DNA of 63,705 bases, filler included, from Thraustochytrium aureum (taxonomy: Eukaryota): NCBI GenBank assembly GCA_012862495.1. It is 5 parts of 4 records of this genome, joined end to end, with 100 filler letters (N's around TTAATTAATTAA, not from the genome) between each part and the next. Parts side by side here need not be neighbours in the genome. Positions count along the whole stretch, not along the records: positions 60,865 to 62,389 come from BLSG01000358.1; 4 more parts are not named here. One strand, given 5' to 3'. The notes below the pieces were generated by a model. The model saw only the letters and a program-made list of their open reading frames with translations, was not told the origin of the DNA and did no database searches. Position 1 is the first letter of the stretch. Each line of letters opens with the position of its first letter. This document shows, in pieces, positions 40,417 through 62,389 of this stretch. The translations under genes were made by a program, and so were the position numbers.

Positions 40417-41573
40417 ATGTCGTGGGAAGAATACTGCCGCGTCACGCCACCTAGCGTGTTCCTTGGCGTTATGCGGATGACGAACGCGGAGTTTGAACAA
40501 CTTTTCGATACTCTCGCCAACAACCCGGAAAGCGCTAACAATCTTTTCCGCGATTCTCGAGGTAGCCAAAGGCCCTCGACACGGCTGGTTGAGCCAAGAA
40601 TGATCCTCTCTATCACGCTCATGCGCCTTGGCGGTGCAAGCTTTGCTGTCATTGCAGGAATGTTCAACCTCTCGATCAACACACCGTGGTTCGCGTTCCA
40701 CGACGGCATACGCGCTATCTTAGCTGCGCAGGACAGCTTTATAGACCCGGACCCTTTCGGATCTTTGGAGAAGCTTGAGGGCCTCGCCAAGGACTTCAAT
40801 CGCAAGACGTGGGGATACCGGGACGGCATGCGAACGATGTATGGCTGTGTTGGGGCTCTGGATGGCATTGTTCTCAAGATCGCGAACCCTACAACCGAGG
40901 GGAACCAGCGCAGCTACTTTAACCGTAAGGGCTTCTTTGCCATTGTAGCCCAAGCGATTTGCGACGACAACTGCAAGTTCCTGATGTTTTCGCCGCGATT
41001 CAGGGGATCAACGCACGACTCACAGGCCTTCTACCAATCGAGCCTGTACGATGACATCGCTGGCACAACTCTGATGCTAAAGGAACATGAGGATAGTGAG
41101 CACCTCGAAATTGGCCGCAACTTTTGGATTGCAGCTGACAACGCGTACAACCCGACACCTACCGTATTGGTCCCGTACAAAAATCTGTCAACAGGACCTG
41201 AACGACTCAAGCGCCTCGGATTCAACGAAAAGCTCTCCAGTTTGCGCGTCAGGATCGAGAACTGCTTTGGCATTTTGAAGAAAAAGTTCCCAATCCTCAC
41301 GCACGGTCTGCCATGCAAAACCCCAAGCGACAACGCGAACGTTGCGATGGCGTGCGCGCTTCTGCACAACTTCCTTCGAGACCATCAATTGAGCGGAGCT
41401 GGTTCCGACAGCCCTGCAGCATTCGATGCGAGCGGGCAAGCAAGCAACTGGGAAAGTGGAGGACGACAGAACTTTGACAACAACACAAGTATTGATCAAG
41501 ACACGCATCGTCCGCAAAGGAATCTGCAAAGTGAAGCCCTTCGCGCCCGCCACGCAACCTGGCTCCTCCAAAA
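40417..41573 (+). mobile_element. PIF/Harbinger DDE transposase (DDE_Tnp_4/HARBI1-like), both ends in gaps
   Basis: GCVGALDGIVLKI, YFNRKGFFAIVAQAICD, GSTHDSQAF, IAADNAY, FNEKLSSLRVRIENCFGILKKKFPIL, ACALLHNFL. Lower GC than host genes. Confidence 0.93.
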
Positions 41574-46445: not shown

Positions 46446-47315
46446 ATGGCTGGTGGTGCTGCTCTTGCTATTCCAGCACTGATGATTCCGGGACTGATCA
46501 TCGAAGGTGTTGGCCTGGCGACGCAGCTTGGCGGCTTGGCGGGTCCTGGTCAACGGATTCGCAGCTACTTATGGTCGGTTAGAGATGGTTCCTGGGAGTA
46601 CCGGTTTCCCATCTTTGCTTTTCTCTCGTACCATCAAGAGTCATCCAGAGGTGTTGTTTCGACATTTACCGGGGCGATTTCGAGACTCGGGGACCAGTTT
46701 TCGGGCGACGCTTTCACGAAGCAGAATGGATGTCTTCCCGACACGCAGCTTTTGGGTGACCTTGAGAGCATTCCGATGTACGTCAAAAACTCGCGCGTCT
46801 ACGTGGCATTCCTGTCGGAGAACTTTTTCAACAGCGCCTTTTGCTTGCTCGAGTTCATCACGGCTGTGCAGTTCCAAAAACCCATCATCTTGATTGAAAG
46901 CGACACCATCGAGCCCTTCCAGCGTGACCGCATTGAGACGTACAAGTACTTGGCGCAAAGGACGCGCCGGAAGAACCCTAGTACCTTTTCGTTGATTAGA
47001 GCATCGCGGGCAGACTGGGAGAAGCTCTTCAATCGCGTCGACAGAATCATCGCGACCAGATTTACGTCCAACATCAGGGACGACTACCTGGAGGGCTCCG
47101 TGAGGGGCCTCATGCGGGACTTTCTGGGCGCAGCGCTGAAGGATCGACAGCAAGAGCTCGAATCGTTCGAAGGCGCACCAAAGTCACAGCGATGGAGTTC
47201 CAGTGGCACGTTCACCTCATGGAGCGATGTGAAGGAGATCCAGTACGTGAAATGCTGTATTGGATACCGTGCAAAAGCTGTTCGTGCAATGAACCCGCAA
47301 TTCTTGGGCATGTAG
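46446..47315 (+). CDS. Standalone TIR-domain protein (289 aa)
   Basis: Box-1 FAFLSYHQ, then VKNSRVYVAFLSENFFNSAFCLLEFITAVQFQKPIILI with the conserved Glu at codon 46851-46853. Gly-rich hydrophobic N-terminus; intact intronless ORF. Confidence 0.85.
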   Translation: MAGGAALAIPALMIPGLIIEGVGLATQLGGLAGPGQRIRSYLWSVRDGSWEYRFPIFAFLSYHQESSRGVVSTFTGAISRLGDQFSGDAFTKQNGCLPDTQLLGDLESIPMYVKNSRVYVAFLSENFFNSAFCLLEFITAVQFQKPIILIESDTIEPFQRDRIETYKYLAQRTRRKNPSTFSLIRASRADWEKLFNRVDRIIATRFTSNIRDDYLEGSVRGLMRDFLGAALKDRQQELESFEGAPKSQRWSSSGTFTSWSDVKEIQYVKCCIGYRAKAVRAMNPQFLGM

Positions 47316-48089: not shown

Positions 48090-50207
48090 GTGTTGGCCGA
48101 CGGTGGCGGGACCCAACTCGGAGGTCCCGCGCACCACAGTGAGCCACACGGGCTTGCTCTGGCCACGGAGAGCCTGGGCACACAAAGTGCTCCAGGCGAC
48201 GTGGCGCAAGCAGGTATGCTTCGCGAGCCCCCCGGCGAAGAATGGCTCGTCGAGAGAGACGCAGGACCTGGTGAACATACGTCAACCGTAAAGATCGAGC
48301 CGCGGAGCGTCCGAGGAGACGAATGGCTACTCGTAGGACCACCCTATCGTGGTGATGGAGCGTCCGACTGCGGACGGACGGGCAACGAAACCTTCCTGGC
48401 AGCCGGGCCCAGCCTTGCCGAGAGGATTGCAGCTTTGCAACGGGAGCGAGCGCAGTTCCTGCAAGAGGGAAACCCGGATCTCATCGAAGCAATCGACGAG
48501 AAGGTTCGAAGCATGTACCGTGAGCTGGGGGAGGAGATCCGAAGTGCCTGCGCCGATGCCGCGCCTGCACGAGCAGCCCAAGAAAGGACAACGCGGAGTC
48601 TGCCGCGACGAGTGCCCCCGGCCAGCCTCTCGAGCAATCCTCCCGAAAAGCGGGGAGGAGAAACCTGGTCCCGTGGAGACAGGCCCAGTCCGCGGGGAGT
48701 TTGGGACGAGGAACGCGAAGCCATCGGTCGCCGGGAATACCTCGACCGACTGGAAAGCCCACCCCCCCGCGCAACATCGCTCGCTAGGCACCGGGCCAGG
48801 GAGAGGGCTAAGGCGACGGGTTTGCAGAACCTCAGCAGCCAAATATCTGGGATGACTTTGAACGATGCAGAGGCAATCTTTAGGGTGAAGATTAAGCCAA
48901 AAGAGTGGCAAGACCGCCTCAGAGATGCGCCAAGCATTGGGTTTAAAGGCTCGAACGCGTTCGGCGCGTATAGAGACCGGCTGGTGCAGATAATGAGCAA
49001 CGAGCTAAGGAGCCACGGGGTGGACAACGGAGCGGTTGCACTCCTGGTAGACAAGGCCCCAGTGGGCTCCATCCCTGAAACGCTGGACAGGATGTTCCAA
49101 ATCTTCATCGATGTGTCGCTCTGCCAAAGCGAGCCTGCTGCGCGAGCGTTCGCTCTCCAGGCAATGCCAACGAGGCGCAACATGAGAGGTGGCCTCGAGG
49201 CATACCGCCTCCTGGAGGAGGCGTGTGTCGTGCTGGGCCAAGGCGGCGACCCGCCCGAGCTGCGGCGGCTAAAGGACTGGAAGTTTGACCTTAACAAGGT
49301 CAGTATCGAAAACGCAGCATTATTCCGCGTCGCGAGCGCGGACGCGTTCCCCGACTTGGACACAAACGCGGTATCCCAAGCAACCGTACACTCGTTCCTT
49401 ATGGACGCCGTAGGGCGCCTCGGGCCGGATCTGAAGGAGGAACTACGCAGCGAGACGGTTGCCGCGCAGGAACTCCACCAGCAGGTTACGCAGGGGATAC
49501 TCAAGACGGCAGACTCACTCAACATTGCCCTGTCAAAGCTGCCAACGATCCTCCGCGTGGCTAAGGAAAGACAAGGCAGAGGCGGGGCTGAGCTCTACAG
49601 GGGACAGGTGGGCCCACGGTGCGGTTGGAAAATGCAGGCCCGCCGGCGGCCCGCAGCGAAGGCGAAGCAGAAGTCTCAAAGTGAGGCTACCTGCTTCAAT
49701 TGTGGTGAGAAAGGCCATTACAACAGGGAGTGTCCGGAGTTCGGGGCGCAGGCAACGAGGAGAGGCGACCAGCGCGTGCCCGACCGGGCCAGGAATGTTG
49801 GCAAAGGGCACGGGAAGAGACAGAGGAGCGACAGCAAGAGGGGGCCTCGTACGAAGAGCAGCAGCGGTGGCACGCACGTCACGAGCCGCCAACCGGACCT
49901 GCAAACTCAGGGTGGCCAAGGTGGTGCGACCGTCACGAGCCTTCCGGCGGGCCTCGTAGAGAGCCTGTCGACGCAACTCGCACACCTAAATCAAGCACTC
50001 GCGGCCCTAGTTCGGTCGCGTAGAGATGCGGCCACTCCCGCCAACCGGGACATGGCCCAACACGATTGGCCCATGATGCTCCGTACCAAACCAGAGAGCT
50101 CCCAACCCCAGCACGACGAGCCTGGAATACCAGAGGCGGCGTGGGATACGGGGCATCTTGGCCCTTGTATCAGGCTTGGCCAGCAAAACGTAGCCCAGCT
50201 TTCGTAA
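48090..50207 (+). mobile_element. Retroelement gag-like ORF with CCHC zinc knuckle and possible truncated protease motif
   Basis: CFNCGEKGHYNREC at 49692-49733, a GGLEAYRLL gag-like helix, a basic region after the knuckle, and AAWDTG at 50136-50153 shortly before the stop. Confidence 0.72.
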
Positions 50208-55020: not shown

Positions 55021-55574
55021 GCGTTCCCGCAGTAACACATCAATCACATCGAGTAGATCCATGAAACCGCAGCCAAAAAAAGCACGCATCACCAATGCCC
55101 CTTCCGATGACCTGCTGCAACTGCTGCTGTTGGAACACTTGGACGACCGAGGCGGCGACCAGATCAGCCATTCCCAGCGACCACCCACACCCCTTGCAGC
55201 CCCTCTGCTGATGGAATCAACGACTATTCATTGCAAGCGCCTCACGTCGCGTGATAGCGCTGCTGCCTTCAGCCGGCTAGCCCGGCTGGCGCGGCGCCGC
55301 GGTCTCGTCTCGTGGGCCTCGTGAGACATGCTTCGCATTAGCAAAACACATGGTTGAGAGATTCTGTGCCATGTACGCACCTCGCTCGAGCAGACCCGCA
55401 GCGCGCCTCGAGCACGAGCAGCCAGAGCAGCAGCACCGGCGGAGCGGTGGTGCAGAGGAGGCCGGGGCCGAGGGCATCGCGGCGGCGCTAAGGGCTTGCC
55501 GCGCTGGCCGCGCTCGTGAGCGATTGCGTCCTCCAGCGCGGAGGTCGGCGCGACGATTTTTTTCTCGTTTTTTC

Positions 55575-58500
55575 ATGGTCTTGCCCGCCGTCGCGGTCGC
55601 TGCTGCTGGGGTCGGCGTCGCGGGAGGGCTGTACCAGGTCGAGCAACGGTGCTCGGGTAAACGGCACGTTGCGGACAGCACGGCGATGGAGGGTGGACTG
55701 GCTGGTGACGCAGAGGCCGAGCTGCCGGGTCGTGTCGCGCCTGCCTCGCCCAGCCCAACAGCTTCGCCGGGGCACGAGCAGAGCCGACGAGGGGCGAGGC
55801 GGACGGCGGGACCGAGCGAGGCGGGCGCGGGCCGAGCCACTCAAGTATGTGCTTCGTCTGAGCGGGTTTGAAACCCCTCCGGAACGCGGGTACACGATGT
55901 ACTACATCCGCGTGGCTGTGGAGAGCCAAGAAGCTGCTTTGCGCGGCGGAAAGCGGCTCTGGTACGTGCGCAAGCGCTTTCGCAATTTCTGGAAGATGCG
56001 CCAGGGAATCGTTCAGGTCAACGGGGTCGCCCCCGAGCTTCCACACAAAAAGTACTTTGGGAACCGCAACCCAGAATTCATCAAGCTCCGCGCGCACGGC
56101 CTCTCCACCTTCCTGTGGAGCCTTGCCTCGAGCCCGCCGATGTGCGCGATCAGGTGCGTCCACGAGTTCCTCTGGTCCGACGTCTGTGTCCCACCAACGC
56201 GCAGCCTTTTGCCCAGCACTCCCCTCATCACGCGCGCCTCGCCAGAGTTCGCTGGCGAGGGCGCGTTCGGTGGAAGCTCTGCCGCGACGGCGTCCCTTGC
56301 GTCCGCCCCGTTTCGCTTGGACGAGGACGGCGACCCCGCGCGGTCCCCTTGTTCAAGGTCAGAAGCTGTTCTCGTCGACCGCGCCGCATCAGACATTGCA
56401 GACGTCCAAGGGTGCCTCGTTCTCTCATCTGCAGAAGCCCTGCAGCGTAGCTTTGCACGCGAAGGCATCCTTTTCCCGGACGACGACGCGATCGAGTCGG
56501 ATGCCTCCGATAGCGACGCCGACGATGCGACCTACTTGGCGAGGGCCTGCTCTAGCTTCATGCCTGGCCTGTACCAGTGGTACGCTGGCAAGCCTGCTGG
56601 ACCGGGTATTTGTAGCGCGGACCGCTCGAGCGGCTCCCGCGATGCGCGCAGATACTCTGAGATCGGCGAGGCCGCAGCCCGAGAAGGTGGCGAGCAACCA
56701 GTCCCGTTCGATGCTGCGCGAATCCACACGGTGGACTCTGTGCGAGCTGAGCAGGCCACCGTGGACGACGACGACGAGATCCGGCGCCGCCTCGTGCCAA
56801 AGCTGCGCTTTGTTATCATTCTCGTCGGCTCGCGTGGCGACGTCCAACCGTACATCGCCCTGGGGCTCGCGCTGCACTGCCGAGGCCACTACGTGCGCGT
56901 TGCGGCGCACGAGTGCTTTCGCGAGTTTGTGGTCTCGCACGGGCTCGGTTTCGCTCCTCTCGCGGGCGACCCCAAAGAGCTGCTGCGCATGGTCACCGAA
57001 AACAACATGTTCTCGTTCCAGTTCGTCAAGGAAGGCGTGACCTCGCACCGCACCTGGGTTCAACATGTTCTCGACGACGCCTGGGACGCCTGCACGCTCG
57101 CAGACCGCGACCTCCGCCAAGGCCCAGAGGACCCTAGCGTCCCAAGGCCAGAGCGGGCTGACCCCAACAGGAACGTCGGCTTTGGGCCAGGCTTTGCCTT
57201 TGCGGCACGCAAGTCCTCTTTCCGCGCCGACGCCATCATCGCCAATCCACCCGCGTTCGCGGGCTGGCACCTCGCCGAGGCGCTCGGCGTGCCCTTGTAC
57301 ATGAGCTTCCCCATGCCGTGGTCGCGCACCGGCGAGTTTCCCTCGCCTTTCACCAGCGCGAAAAACAACACGGCGAGCACCCAGCTTAACTGGATGTCGT
57401 ACGGGGCCGTAGACCGCCTCATGTGGCTCGGAACAGGCGACCTCGTCAACCGGTGGCGAGTCAAGACGCTGCGCATTCCCCCGATCTGGACCATGTCGGC
57501 TCGCGGCCACCGCATGGTCCACGACAACAAGGTCCCACACATTTACCCCTGGAGTCCTCAGGTGCTCGCCAAGCCGCGCGACTGGGGCTCGCACATATGC
57601 GTGCCCGGGTACTGGTTCCTGGACGACGAGATCGAGCGTGCCAGCGCGTTGCAAGGCCAGACCGAAGGCGCCTCTGCCTCCAGCCAGGGCCCCGGCGAGC
57701 CAGATTACACTGCGCCTGCGTTGACCGCTGCTGCTCAAGAGTACATGCCTCCGGCCCAAGTGTCGCAGTTTTTCCAGGACCCGGAGGCCCCAATTTTCAT
57801 CGGATTCGGTTCGATTGTCGTGAAAAACCCTGAAAAGCTCTCGCGCATGATCGTCAGTACCCTCGTCGAGCTTGCGCCCAAGCATAGGTTTGTGGTCCAG
57901 GCCGGCTGGGCCAACCTCGACGTATCTGCCGTCCCGAGAGAGGTCGCTCACCGCGTGCTAATGCTCGGGCCGGTGCCGCACAGGTGGCTTTTCGAAAGGT
58001 GCAAGCTCGTCGTCCACCATGGGGGGGCTGGCACGACCGCAGAGGGACTTCGGGCCGGCAAGTCTGCCGTCGTGGTCCCGTTCTTTGGCGACCAGTTCTT
58101 CTGGGCCCGCCAGGTTAAGGAGGTGCGGATTGGTGTCCGTATCCCGTACAGCGAGCTCACGGTGAAAAAGCTCGTCGCCGCCATCGAGGCTGCGCTCGGC
58201 CCCGGCGTGCGGATGCGAGCACAGGTCCTGAGCAAGTCGGTGGAGCGGGAACGCGGCACCGATGTGGCTGTCGCCTTCATCGAGCGCCAATTCCTCAAGA
58301 TGGAGACCATCCGGGGCAAGCGAGAGGGCGGCCCCGTGGACTGGGCTTGTCTCGCGTCCCCCCAGGCGCCCCCTGCGGCACCGCCAACGAGGTCGTTCAG
58401 CGCGTGGGAGGCACGCAATATCGCAAGCGAGCACTGGCGGTCGTGGCCGTACGTGGACTGGAGCGACAAGGCTGAGACGTTGATCGACCGCCCGATTCAG

Positions 58501-58785
58501 GCTATTTCGTCGATTGGGAAGCGGGTCAAGGTGGTCGGCGCTGCGCTGAAGCAGACAGTGGTTCGACAAAGTCCCTCGCCACGGGCGCGCCAAGGCCTCG
58601 AGCTCAAGCCCCTGCCTCGATCTGCCATGGAACGCGAGGGTAGAGCGTCAAGGGGGAAGAGACTCCCGCCGCGCTCTTTTGCTTCCACAGCTCCGAAGGG
58701 CCACACGCGCTTCAGCTGGTCGCATGGGCAAGGCTGCGACGTGCCCAAAGGCCACACCCGCTTCAGTTGGGGCGGGGTGAGTTGA
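55575..58785 (+). CDS. PX-domain-containing sterol 3-beta-glucosyltransferase (GT1, UGT51/UGT80-like); start uncertain, probable frameshift near 55830
   Basis: PX: GYTMYYIRV...VRKRFRNFWKM...PELPHKKYFGNRNPEFIKLRAHGLSTFL. GT: VGSRGDVQPYIALG, AIIANPP, PWSRTGEFP, PIFIGFGSIV, VPHRWLF..VVHHGGAGTTAEGLRAG..VVPFFGDQFFW. Confidence 0.92.
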
Positions 58786-60864: not shown

Positions 60865-61611
60865 CTTCGTGCGGGAGGTCGAGGCGATGGGCGAAAACCA
60901 AGCCCCTGGCCGCGGCTTCCGGTACGACACGGCCGGGCCCGCGGCAACCGGCGCAGCAACACCGCCGTGCCCACGCCCTCGCAGAGCCGGCACTCCACCG
61001 CGGCGCTCGACCCGGGCGTTCGGACCTTCCAGACCGTCTACGACGCGGACGGGCAGGCGATTGAGTGGGGCGCGGGCGACATGCGCTCGGTGTTCGTTCT
61101 CTGCCGCCAGGCGGACGCGATCCAGTCCAAGATGGCCAGGAAGCGCGCCGGGAAGGGGAGCACCTACGGGCTGCGCAAGGCCTGGGTCCGCAAGCTCGCC
61201 AAGATCAAGCAGAAGGTGGCGGAGTGCCACCGCAAGCTCGCGCTCTTCCTTGTGGAGAACTACCGCGCCGTGCTGATCCCCAAGTTCGACGTCTCGCGCA
61301 TGGTGCGCGGCCGTGACCGCAAGATCCGCTCAGTCACCGTGCGCTCCATGTGCACCTGGTCGCACTTCGCCTTCCGGAAGGCGCTCTTCACCAAGGCCGA
61401 GCTCGCGCCCTGGTGTAAGGTCGTCGAGGTCGGCGAGGCATATACCTCCAAGACCTGCGAGGAGTGCGGCGCGCTGCACAACAAGCTGGGCGGCAGCAAG
61501 GTGTTCAAGTGCCCGAGATGCGGTCACACCGCGGACCGCGACGTGCATGCTGCCAAGAACATTCTCCTGCGCTACCTCACGCGCGAGAACATCAACCCGG
61601 CTCGCTTTTGA
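60865..61611 (+). CDS. Fanzor2 (eukaryotic IS607-type TnpB homologue) RNA-guided RuvC endonuclease, C-terminal half; 5' truncated at scaffold edge
   Basis: RuvC-I ALDPGVRTFQTVYD (D 61009); RuvC-II region YRAVLIPKF with Pro at the canonical Glu position and relocated Glu in VGEAYTSKTC (61435); zinc finger CEEC...CPRC; RuvC-III DRDVHAAKNI (D 61540). Confidence 0.92.
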   Translation, partial: LRAGGRGDGRKPSPWPRLPVRHGRARGNRRSNTAVPTPSQSRHSTAALDPGVRTFQTVYDADGQAIEWGAGDMRSVFVLCRQADAIQSKMARKRAGKGSTYGLRKAWVRKLAKIKQKVAECHRKLALFLVENYRAVLIPKFDVSRMVRGRDRKIRSVTVRSMCTWSHFAFRKALFTKAELAPWCKVVEVGEAYTSKTCEECGALHNKLGGSKVFKCPRCGHTADRDVHAAKNILLRYLTRENINPARF

Positions 61612-61752
61612 GCCGGAGAGAGGTAGTCGTCGAAGAGGCGACTACCTTCGTGCCTTAGCACCCCACGTTGCCACTGGCCGTGGGTAACATCATCATGCGA
61701 CAGCTTTTGGCGAAATTGCTCGAATTGATAGATTTAATCTAAGGGCAGTTGG
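61597..61752 (+). ncRNA. Putative Fanzor omega-RNA scaffold / transposon right end
   Basis: Hairpins at 61597-61616 (overlapping the stop codon), 61620-61648 and ~61662-61688, plus long-range TGCCTTAG (61651-58)/CTAAGGGCA (61739-47) complementarity, directly 3' of the Fanzor ORF. Confidence 0.68.
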
Positions 61753-61821
61753 CACCGTGATTCTGTCCCAAAAATAGATTGCAAACAGCAGTTGCACAAC
61801 AACGAAGTCGAGCGAAAGGCA

Positions 61822-62389
61822 ATGACGAGGACGCTCTCGGACATGTGGGGCGGCGCGGGCGGCAGCGCGACATGCGCGCGTAAGCGGGCACGCGCGTACG
61901 TCGCGGAAGATAAGCCCCGCGCGCGACCCGTGCGCCCGCAAAAGCGCCAAGCGCAGCTGGAGCAGCAGACGTACCTGGACCTGGGCCAGCGCGGGTTTGT
62001 CGGCAAGGAGTGCGAGGCGTGCGGCATGACCTTCGTGCCTGGGGTGGCCACCGACGAGGCCCAGCACGCTCGATTCTGCAGCGAAAAGGCGGGTGCTATC
62101 TCCATGCGCGGCGTCGACGCCGAGGCAGCAGCTGGCCGCCTGGTCGCGGACCGCTTCGGCGAGGGTTCGGTCGCTCTTTACGTGCCCGGCTCGCCCTGCC
62201 CCCGCGCGCCCGCGAAAGGCTTTGCCGCCAAGCTCCTGGCAGTCAAGCGCGCGGTGGTGGACCCGCAAATGGGCTTCGCGGAGCGGCCCAAGGACAGGCG
62301 AGAGGACGTCGCAGCGGTGGTCGTGCGAGGCCGCTGGCGGGATTCGCCCTGATCGAGCGCGTGGCGGCCGAGGACCGCGTGTGCTGGAC
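61822..62389 (+). CDS. ECO1: Cohesin acetyltransferase Eco1/ESCO, N-terminal part (frameshift near 62335; truncated at scaffold edge)
   Basis: PIP-like QQTYLDLGQ followed by the C2H2-type zinc finger CEACGMTFVPGVATDEAQHARFC; AVVDPQMGF matches the conserved VdxELGF motif. Confidence 0.85.

Follow-up and report, generated by a model that had tools for sequence, protein, structure and literature searches.

The window, the whole stretch of 63,705 nucleotides of Thraustochytrium aureum DNA analysed here, is a string of small scaffolds. One of them, a 1,525-bp scaffold flanked by N linkers (60865-62389), carries the 3′ part of a gene for a Fanzor2-type nuclease, a non-coding tail, and the 5′ part of a host gene (Table 1).

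Table 1. Features of the Fanzor2-bearing scaffold, in positions of the window
Feature	Position	Strand	Basis or remark
Upstream Fanzor2 coding segment, 18 codons, likely the last wedge-domain strand	60866..60919	+	Matches FVREVE..QAP of homologues
71 extra bases breaking the frame	60920..60990	+	Candidate GT-AG intron 60922-60986 (65 nt), or coding insert plus frameshift
RuvC / REC2 / zinc-finger coding region	60991..61611 (containing 61009)	+	206 codons, stop-free; Pfam, PDB match, AlphaFold2, Foldseek
RuvC-I Asp, DPG motif	61009..61011	+	Corresponds to ApmFz2 Asp324 (residue numbers from PMC11832414)
Pro replacing the canonical RuvC-II Glu	61279..61281	+	Gly416 in ApmFz2
Relocated catalytic Glu	61435..61437	+	Six residues N-terminal of the zinc finger; corresponds to ApmFz2 Glu467
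C4 zinc finger	61456..61521	+	Translation and Pfam; CxxC at 61456-61467 and 61510-61521
RuvC-III Asp	61540..61542	+	RD after the C4 zinc finger; corresponds to ApmFz2 Asp501
Predicted omega-RNA scaffold	61612..61745	+	RNA fold; 5′ edge possibly inside the ORF near 61590
Strong hairpin	61620-61648	+	Within the predicted omega-RNA scaffold
Predicted pseudoknot arm	61653..61658	+	6-nt complement of 61739-61744; core in the loop of a small hairpin
Element right end, GG dinucleotide	61744..61745	+	Four contigs diverge nearby; IS607 GG rule (PMC10711439)
Predicted guide, host flank between element and ECO1	61746..61765	+	Deduced from the right end
Host ECO1/ESCO cohesin acetyltransferase gene, 5′ part	61822..62389	+	PF13878 zinc finger, E 9.7e-13

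An earlier note on this DNA had described an RNA-guided endonuclease with a rearranged RuvC active site, and every residue it named was found in place, namely Asp 61009, Pro 61279, Glu 61435, both CxxC pairs, and Asp 61540. Translation gives a stop codon at 61609-61611 and places the Glu 52 residues downstream of the Pro. The homology of the Fanzor region is far above chance: the HMM search proposed in that note detected PF07282 (Cas12f1-like_TNB) by Pfam with an E of 4.4e-18, and homologues are up to 74% identical. In a 396-row alignment, the column of Pro 61279 held Glu in 40/40 canonical bacterial and archaeal TnpB rows (L150-L193) and the column of Glu 61435 in 0/40, the opposite of the window's pattern, which bears out the rearrangement; the relocated Glu was invariant across the 134 rows of alignment A2. 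The protein thus combines DPG at RuvC-I, a replaced canonical Glu, the alternative Glu, a C4 finger, and the RuvC-III RD, as Fanzor2 proteins do. As an arrangement of the active site this is not news, having been published as a hallmark of the entire lineage; the rearranged site, the DPG motif, and the link to IS607 have all been described (PMC10711439, PMC10530073, PMC11832414, PMC3627910).

Judged by its sequence, the host is a thraustochytrid, since a PDCD4-type gene elsewhere in the window, on a different scaffold, has its best named matches in Hondaea fermentalgiana (65%) and Mucochytrium quahogii (63%). The eukaryotic ECO1 gene that the earlier note had seen next to the nuclease was recovered by Pfam on the same scaffold, with its ATG 76 bp downstream of the element end. 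We compared the scaffold with contigs from four runs (X1-X4), of which X2 and X4 come from one sample and X2 and X3 from two other organisms. ECO1 is one base short at 62333 and runs out of frame there, and the X2 and X3 contigs have an extra C; the missing base is likely an assembly error, which limits how far individual bases of this scaffold can be relied on. None of the contigs in the four runs bridged the junction between the element and ECO1, and the junction therefore rests on the assembly; in the X2 run and in the X3 run alike, the element and ECO1 occur together, with identities of roughly 89-97%. GC3 was 0.92 from the RuvC-I motif onward and 0.77-0.91 in 12 host ORF stretches. The description of the gene as host-adapted accordingly holds for its codon use, but not in the sense of a domesticated gene, given the defined right end and differing flanks described below.

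Other ORFs of the window lie on the same strand. A long unbroken ORF at 55492-58785 (+) encodes a PX domain and a family-28 glycosyltransferase and is likely a sterol glucosyltransferase. The ORF at 48216-50207 (+) contains a CCHC zinc knuckle, and we take it to be a likely retrotransposon gag. The ORFs at 40417-41573 (+) and 46446-47315 (+) presumably carry motifs of Harbinger/PIF DDE transposases and of TIR-like domains, respectively.

Relationship to known Fanzors and TnpBs

The best of 16 matched PDB sequences was the mimivirus Fanzor2 ApmFz2 (9B0L; E 1.7e-18). In the alignment its Asp324, Glu467, and Asp501 are the counterparts of Asp 61009, Glu 61435, and Asp 61540, and its Gly416 is that of Pro 61279. 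The structure prediction suggested in the earlier note led to the same relative. An AlphaFold2 model of 60991-61608 (pLDDT 87.6) gave 9B0L as its best PDB match in Foldseek (E 1.4e-10, TMq 0.71), and the Fanzor1 structures scored far lower, with TMq values of 0.44-0.51 (SpuFz, E 3.8e-4, TMq 0.47). The best viral models were giant-virus transposases. The Fanzor1 fold with REC and WED insertions was not seen, as judged on the RuvC part alone.

Sequence searches yielded 233 homologue matches among 1,250 candidates, 1,520 among 2,950 longer candidates, the best of them 70-74% identical, and 9,125 cluster representatives at E ≤ 0.001. The best viral locus was 50% identical, and a viral scan with a single protein as the query returned 0 loci. 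A scan covering 4 of 64 collection parts gave a best bacterial match with a firm name of 46% identity, and a 793-bp contig from a Gammaproteobacteria bin at 67%; short contigs with a Gammaproteobacteria label occur among the close relatives (P0026, and L115 at 67%).

Phylogenies were computed with FastTree from 227 of 389 rows (8 removed as partial or duplicate, the others thinned at 72% identity) and with IQ-TREE from 59 hand-picked rows; neither tree holds Fanzor1, and the IQ-TREE set holds no named Fanzor2. In the IQ-TREE analysis the window protein falls into a clade of 16 rows (98/93) that also holds two records labelled as eukaryotic, one from Durusdinium and one an MMETSP transcript; the DPG groups of cyanobacteria (97/97) and of other named bacteria (100/98) stay separate from it. 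The clade consists mostly of unnamed metagenomic proteins, and in the FastTree analysis the short P0026 lies inside it. The deeper nodes are not resolved in the trees. The phylogeny called for in the earlier note thus separates the protein from the bacterial DPG groups, with Fanzor1 and named Fanzor2 standing outside the tree, and neither the host nor this placement is that of a prokaryotic pro-Fanzor. Fanzor2 is thus a nearer relative of the protein than either Fanzor1, compared by fold and sequence scores, or canonical TnpB; the match to ApmFz2, the clade, and the thraustochytrid host agree with a Fanzor2-type protein in a eukaryote, as had been proposed.

Two of the homologues have unusual records. 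P0212 (1,139 aa) joins XPG-type nuclease domains (PF00867, PF00752) to a Fanzor2 that is 54-55% identical to the window's, and is either a real fusion or a read-through. P0152 (621 aa, 70% identical) is filed under the dinoflagellate Durusdinium trenchii, which reflects either protist-to-protist transfer or a mixed assembly.

Interrupted reading frame upstream of RuvC-I

The Fanzor gene runs beyond the 5′ end of the scaffold at 60865. Close full-length relatives are mostly 580-710 aa long, so the scaffold lacks about 60% of the protein. The closest homologues pass from FVREVE..QAP into HST..LDPG without a long gap, whereas in the window the former part lies in frame 60866 and the RuvC part in frame 60865, separated by 71 bases (60920-60990) that have no counterpart in these homologues. 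The ORF drawn in the earlier note does not stand at its 5′ end, where the first 42 codons of the frame contain no Fanzor sequence. A codon model trained on 12 host ORF stretches scored 60868-60919 at 6.1 in frame 60866, and at -8.3 in the earlier note's frame and -5.1 in the remaining one. Both variants listed in the upstream segment sit on third positions of frame 60866, and an X3 contig extends upstream with the expected MDRLGRVFLC, a translation of the contig's loose end. The active site had been called intact, which is true of the three catalytic residues but not of the gene, whose frame is broken just upstream of RuvC-I.

Among all GT/GC-AG pairs tested against 15 homologues, 60922-60986 (65 nt) scored best, and it is the only canonical GT intron that restores the homologue spacing. 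The distance from QAP to RuvC-I is 9-12 residues in 117 of the 148 motif-bearing homologues (315 examined), with a longest value of 30; here it is predicted to be 12 residues with the intron and 34 with a coding insert. The donor, GTACG, resembles that of a host intron candidate in a pelota-like gene. The acceptor must bypass a CAG two bases earlier, the use of which would give an out-of-frame product, and the CTGAC of three host intron candidates, picked by eye, was not found in this intron candidate. An X3 contig skips 60920-60983; it is taken as RNA only by guess, so this is no proof of splicing.

The other way to account for the 71 bases is that they comprise a coding or low-complexity insert with a true frameshift, which would make the same element a dead relic, and this has a standing only slightly short of even. 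It bears on the condition of this copy and leaves the identity of the element untouched, and the RNA end alone could still serve the protein of a sister copy. In its favour, a single frame switch within the insert gives a coding score of 5.2 (p=0.046 against 2,000 shuffles), near the median of 5.4 for host coding windows (n=190); an X2 contig keeps both ends of the segment around a longer middle, for a derived length of 126 nt, in frame, versus 71 here; and the proximal CAG acceptor would lead out of frame. Against it, no homologue has so long a loop at this point, the donor matches that of the host intron candidate, and 206 codons follow without a stop. The base apparently missing from ECO1 on the same scaffold also makes an assembly error a live and plausible cause of the frame break. 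An intron and a frameshift, the latter by lesion or assembly error, are about equally probable, and we consider it possible, but slightly doubtful, that this copy makes a full protein. With the frame broken before RuvC-I and about 60% of the protein off the scaffold, the suggestion in the earlier note that the nuclease is possibly active is weaker than it was presented.

Split homologues among the loci L005-L028 were considered as intron-bearing genes and rejected, because the 10 junctions inspected were Lys-rich coding inserts without GT-AG. These loci form a degenerate multi-copy Fanzor2 family with a GC content of about 41% and a Lys-rich coding insert of about 400 bp in REC2.

Right end, guide RNA candidate, and mobility

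Four contigs (two from X2 and one each from X4 and X3) track the window's non-coding tail at roughly 91-95% identity and depart from it at 61746 and 61749 (X2), 61745 (X4), and 61748 (X3), each into a different flank. The last base common to all four closes the GG at 61744-61745, and GG is the dinucleotide at which IS607 elements cross over (PMC10711439). One other organism by itself shows at least three different flanks (two X2 contigs and the X4 contig, all from a single sample), and in X3 the sequence before ECO1 differs from the window's. One X3 contig lacks 61553-61644, a loss of 92 bases that removes the C-terminus together with the stop codon and the greater part of the first RNA hairpin. 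Of five right flanks at 61746-61749, three begin with CAG and four with C, a bias that may arise because the recombinase favours certain targets or because the element extends slightly further.

The tail is predicted to fold into a structured RNA. The fold z was -3.24 for 61612-61745 and -3.87 for 61600-61765, which folds better than all 200 shuffles, and the lowest z among 24 scaffold windows was that of 61590-61724. Rfam gave 0 matches at E ≤ 1 for this region, and the first 12 nt of the predicted guide (≤ 1 mismatch) have no second match within the window. The RNAs of ISXfa1 and ApmFz2 close with a pseudoknot analogous to that predicted here (PMC10711439, PMC11832414). The right end, the guide-RNA candidate (z about -4), and the pseudoknot, as modelled here, are new in this analysis. 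The window's 3′ end aligns loosely with those of L005-L028, with a mean column identity of 43%. Two candidate signatures were discarded: TAAGGG as a family-wide end was present after the ORF in only a few related loci, and a 17-nt RNA motif matched 2 viral contigs, in each case a chance hit within a phage gene that had no Fanzor in its vicinity.

On the 1,525-bp scaffold neither TnpA nor a left end was found, the latter lying beyond it. In the relatives L001 (729-2759 and 779-1474) and L035 (2737-4627), a Resolvase-domain (PF00239) serine recombinase is encoded in another frame across the start of the Fanzor ORF. Of 17 close proteins tested, 15 have an N-terminal match to this overlapping L001 frame. 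The close relatives (P0140-P0160 among them) owe their long N-terminal extension to a second reading frame of the IS607 recombinase gene that overlaps it. A TnpA-like match, scored as presence within the locus, was found in 55/80 viral and 27/35 bacterial DPG-range loci and in 1/44 loci of a mostly canonical set. Full-length relatives also carry HTH_OrfB_IS605, and the N-terminal HTH/REC/WED part present in them is off the scaffold here.

The scaffold therefore very probably holds the 3′ end of a Fanzor2 transposon, with its predicted guide RNA and a GG right end, likely of the IS607 type and homing. The defined right end and the different flanks of related copies argue for a mobile element rather than a domesticated gene, and the GG end together with the recombinase-overlapping N-terminal frame of the closest full-length relatives argues for an IS607-type element.

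It is improbable, though worth weighing, that the Fanzor2 rides on a non-IS607 eukaryotic transposon (Fanzor2* type) or on a TnpA-less derivative moved by another enzyme. Such captures have been described (PMC10711439), TnpA is not visible on the scaffold, and with 3/5 right flanks starting with CAG the true end could be at 61748; the GG end with its predicted pseudoknot and the TnpA-overlapping frame retained by the closest proteins speak against it. Far less probable is a domesticated single-copy host gene with a cellular role. The host-like GC3 of 0.92, the possible intron, and the mostly synonymous change in X1/X3 (11/13 changed codons synonymous and 2 non-synonymous, among 40 of 122 variant rows listed), which in the favoured reading as a mobile element points to selection on the protein, would suit it. 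X2 has 10 synonymous and 10 non-synonymous codons, mostly in a variable loop, among the same 40 of 122 rows. An abrupt end, three or more flanks in a single other organism, and the different sequence ahead of ECO1 in X3 do not fit such a gene. A bacterial pro-Fanzor or viral DNA misjoined to ECO1 as a contaminant or chimera is just as improbable: no contig spans the junction and two short Gammaproteobacteria-filed contigs are close relatives, but the best firmly named bacterial and viral matches reach only 46% and 50%, versus 70-74% in the close clade, X2 and X3 each carry both the element and ECO1, and codon use is host-like.

For the IS607-type element, we propose that a TnpA would insert the element by crossover at a GG; its gene would lie in the missing 5′ part and, as relatives show, overlap the start of the Fanzor ORF in a different frame. 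The end of the element is seen at 61745, with ECO1 beginning 76 bp further downstream, and different sequences flank the related copies. A transcript across the right end would yield an omega-RNA with a scaffold of about 61590-61745, closed by the pseudoknot, and a guide formed by the next 15-20 nt of host DNA. By analogy with characterised relatives, the protein-RNA complex would cut where a G-rich motif (GGG in ApmFz2 and ISXfa1) directly adjoins a match to the guide, that is, at the element-free allele, and repair from the occupied copy would restore the element. Homing activity is listed in a review as shown for bacterial TnpB/IscB only (PMC13565253). It is unlikely, yet conceivable, that an active, intron-bearing IS607-Fanzor2 family moves in thraustochytrid nuclei and that the guide of this copy is aimed upstream of ECO1; if so, homing would act on the promoter of an essential cohesion gene.

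Comparison with known systems

Introns in Fanzor genes and Fanzors in stramenopiles are already published. Our literature search retrieved no paper linking Fanzor with thraustochytrids or Aurantiochytrium with TnpB, Repbase and subscription papers lying outside the search, and Fanzor with Labyrinthul- gave nothing beyond a Replitron paper. Eight labyrinthulomycete names or stems were absent from the available supplements of PMC10711439 and PMC10432273, one scanned file excluded, in which control names were present; the available supplement text of PMC10530073 lacked the control names, so its blank is uninformative and its full organism table may list such hosts. Thraustochytrids are thus probably a host lineage not yet catalogued for Fanzors. 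The protein is a genuine Fanzor2 belonging to a known kind and a very large family, present here as a fragment whose frame is interrupted. It would add a host lineage to a compact RNA-guided nuclease family, with an RNA end that can be defined and a target motif that can be predicted. A nuclear IS607-Fanzor2 in several copies, if some of its sites were occupied and others empty, would suit homing tests in a eukaryote.

Thraustochytrids are grown industrially for omega-3 oils.

Among known systems, the closest is ApmFz2 (ApmFNuc), the IS607-encoded Fanzor2 L79 of Acanthamoeba polyphaga mimivirus (PDB 9B0L). Both share DPG, an inert residue at the canonical RuvC-II position, the relocated Glu, the C4 finger, the RuvC-III Asp, and a structured 3′ RNA ending in a pseudoknot, RNA and pseudoknot both being predictions for the window. 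They are only about 30% identical over the domain; the window's gene is nuclear, GC-rich, and not viral, ApmFz2 has 520 aa versus mostly 580-710 aa in the window's close relatives, and the window copy has a 3′ non-coding part of about 134 nt and a possible intron, its nuclease activity being a prediction. Eukaryotic IS607 elements with Fanzor2 (Bao and Jurka 2013, PMC3627910; 'IS607EU', PMC13565253) likewise combine a serine recombinase with Fanzor2, as in the window's relatives, and have a right end at GG, whereas the window's scaffold is without TnpA and a left end and its host lineage is absent from the catalogues searched. The cyanobacterial pro-Fanzors (IS607 TnpB with DPG and the alternative Glu, PMC10711439) share the active-site fingerprint and the TnpA partner, but are 38-46% identical and form a separate clade. 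Fanzor1 (SpuFz, PDB 9CEU; GtFz, PDB 9CER) has the rearranged catalytic site in common with the window's protein and differs in its much weaker fold match (TMq 0.44-0.51); its RNAs are reported without a pseudoknot, and HTH_OrfB_IS605 is carried by the window's full-length relatives.
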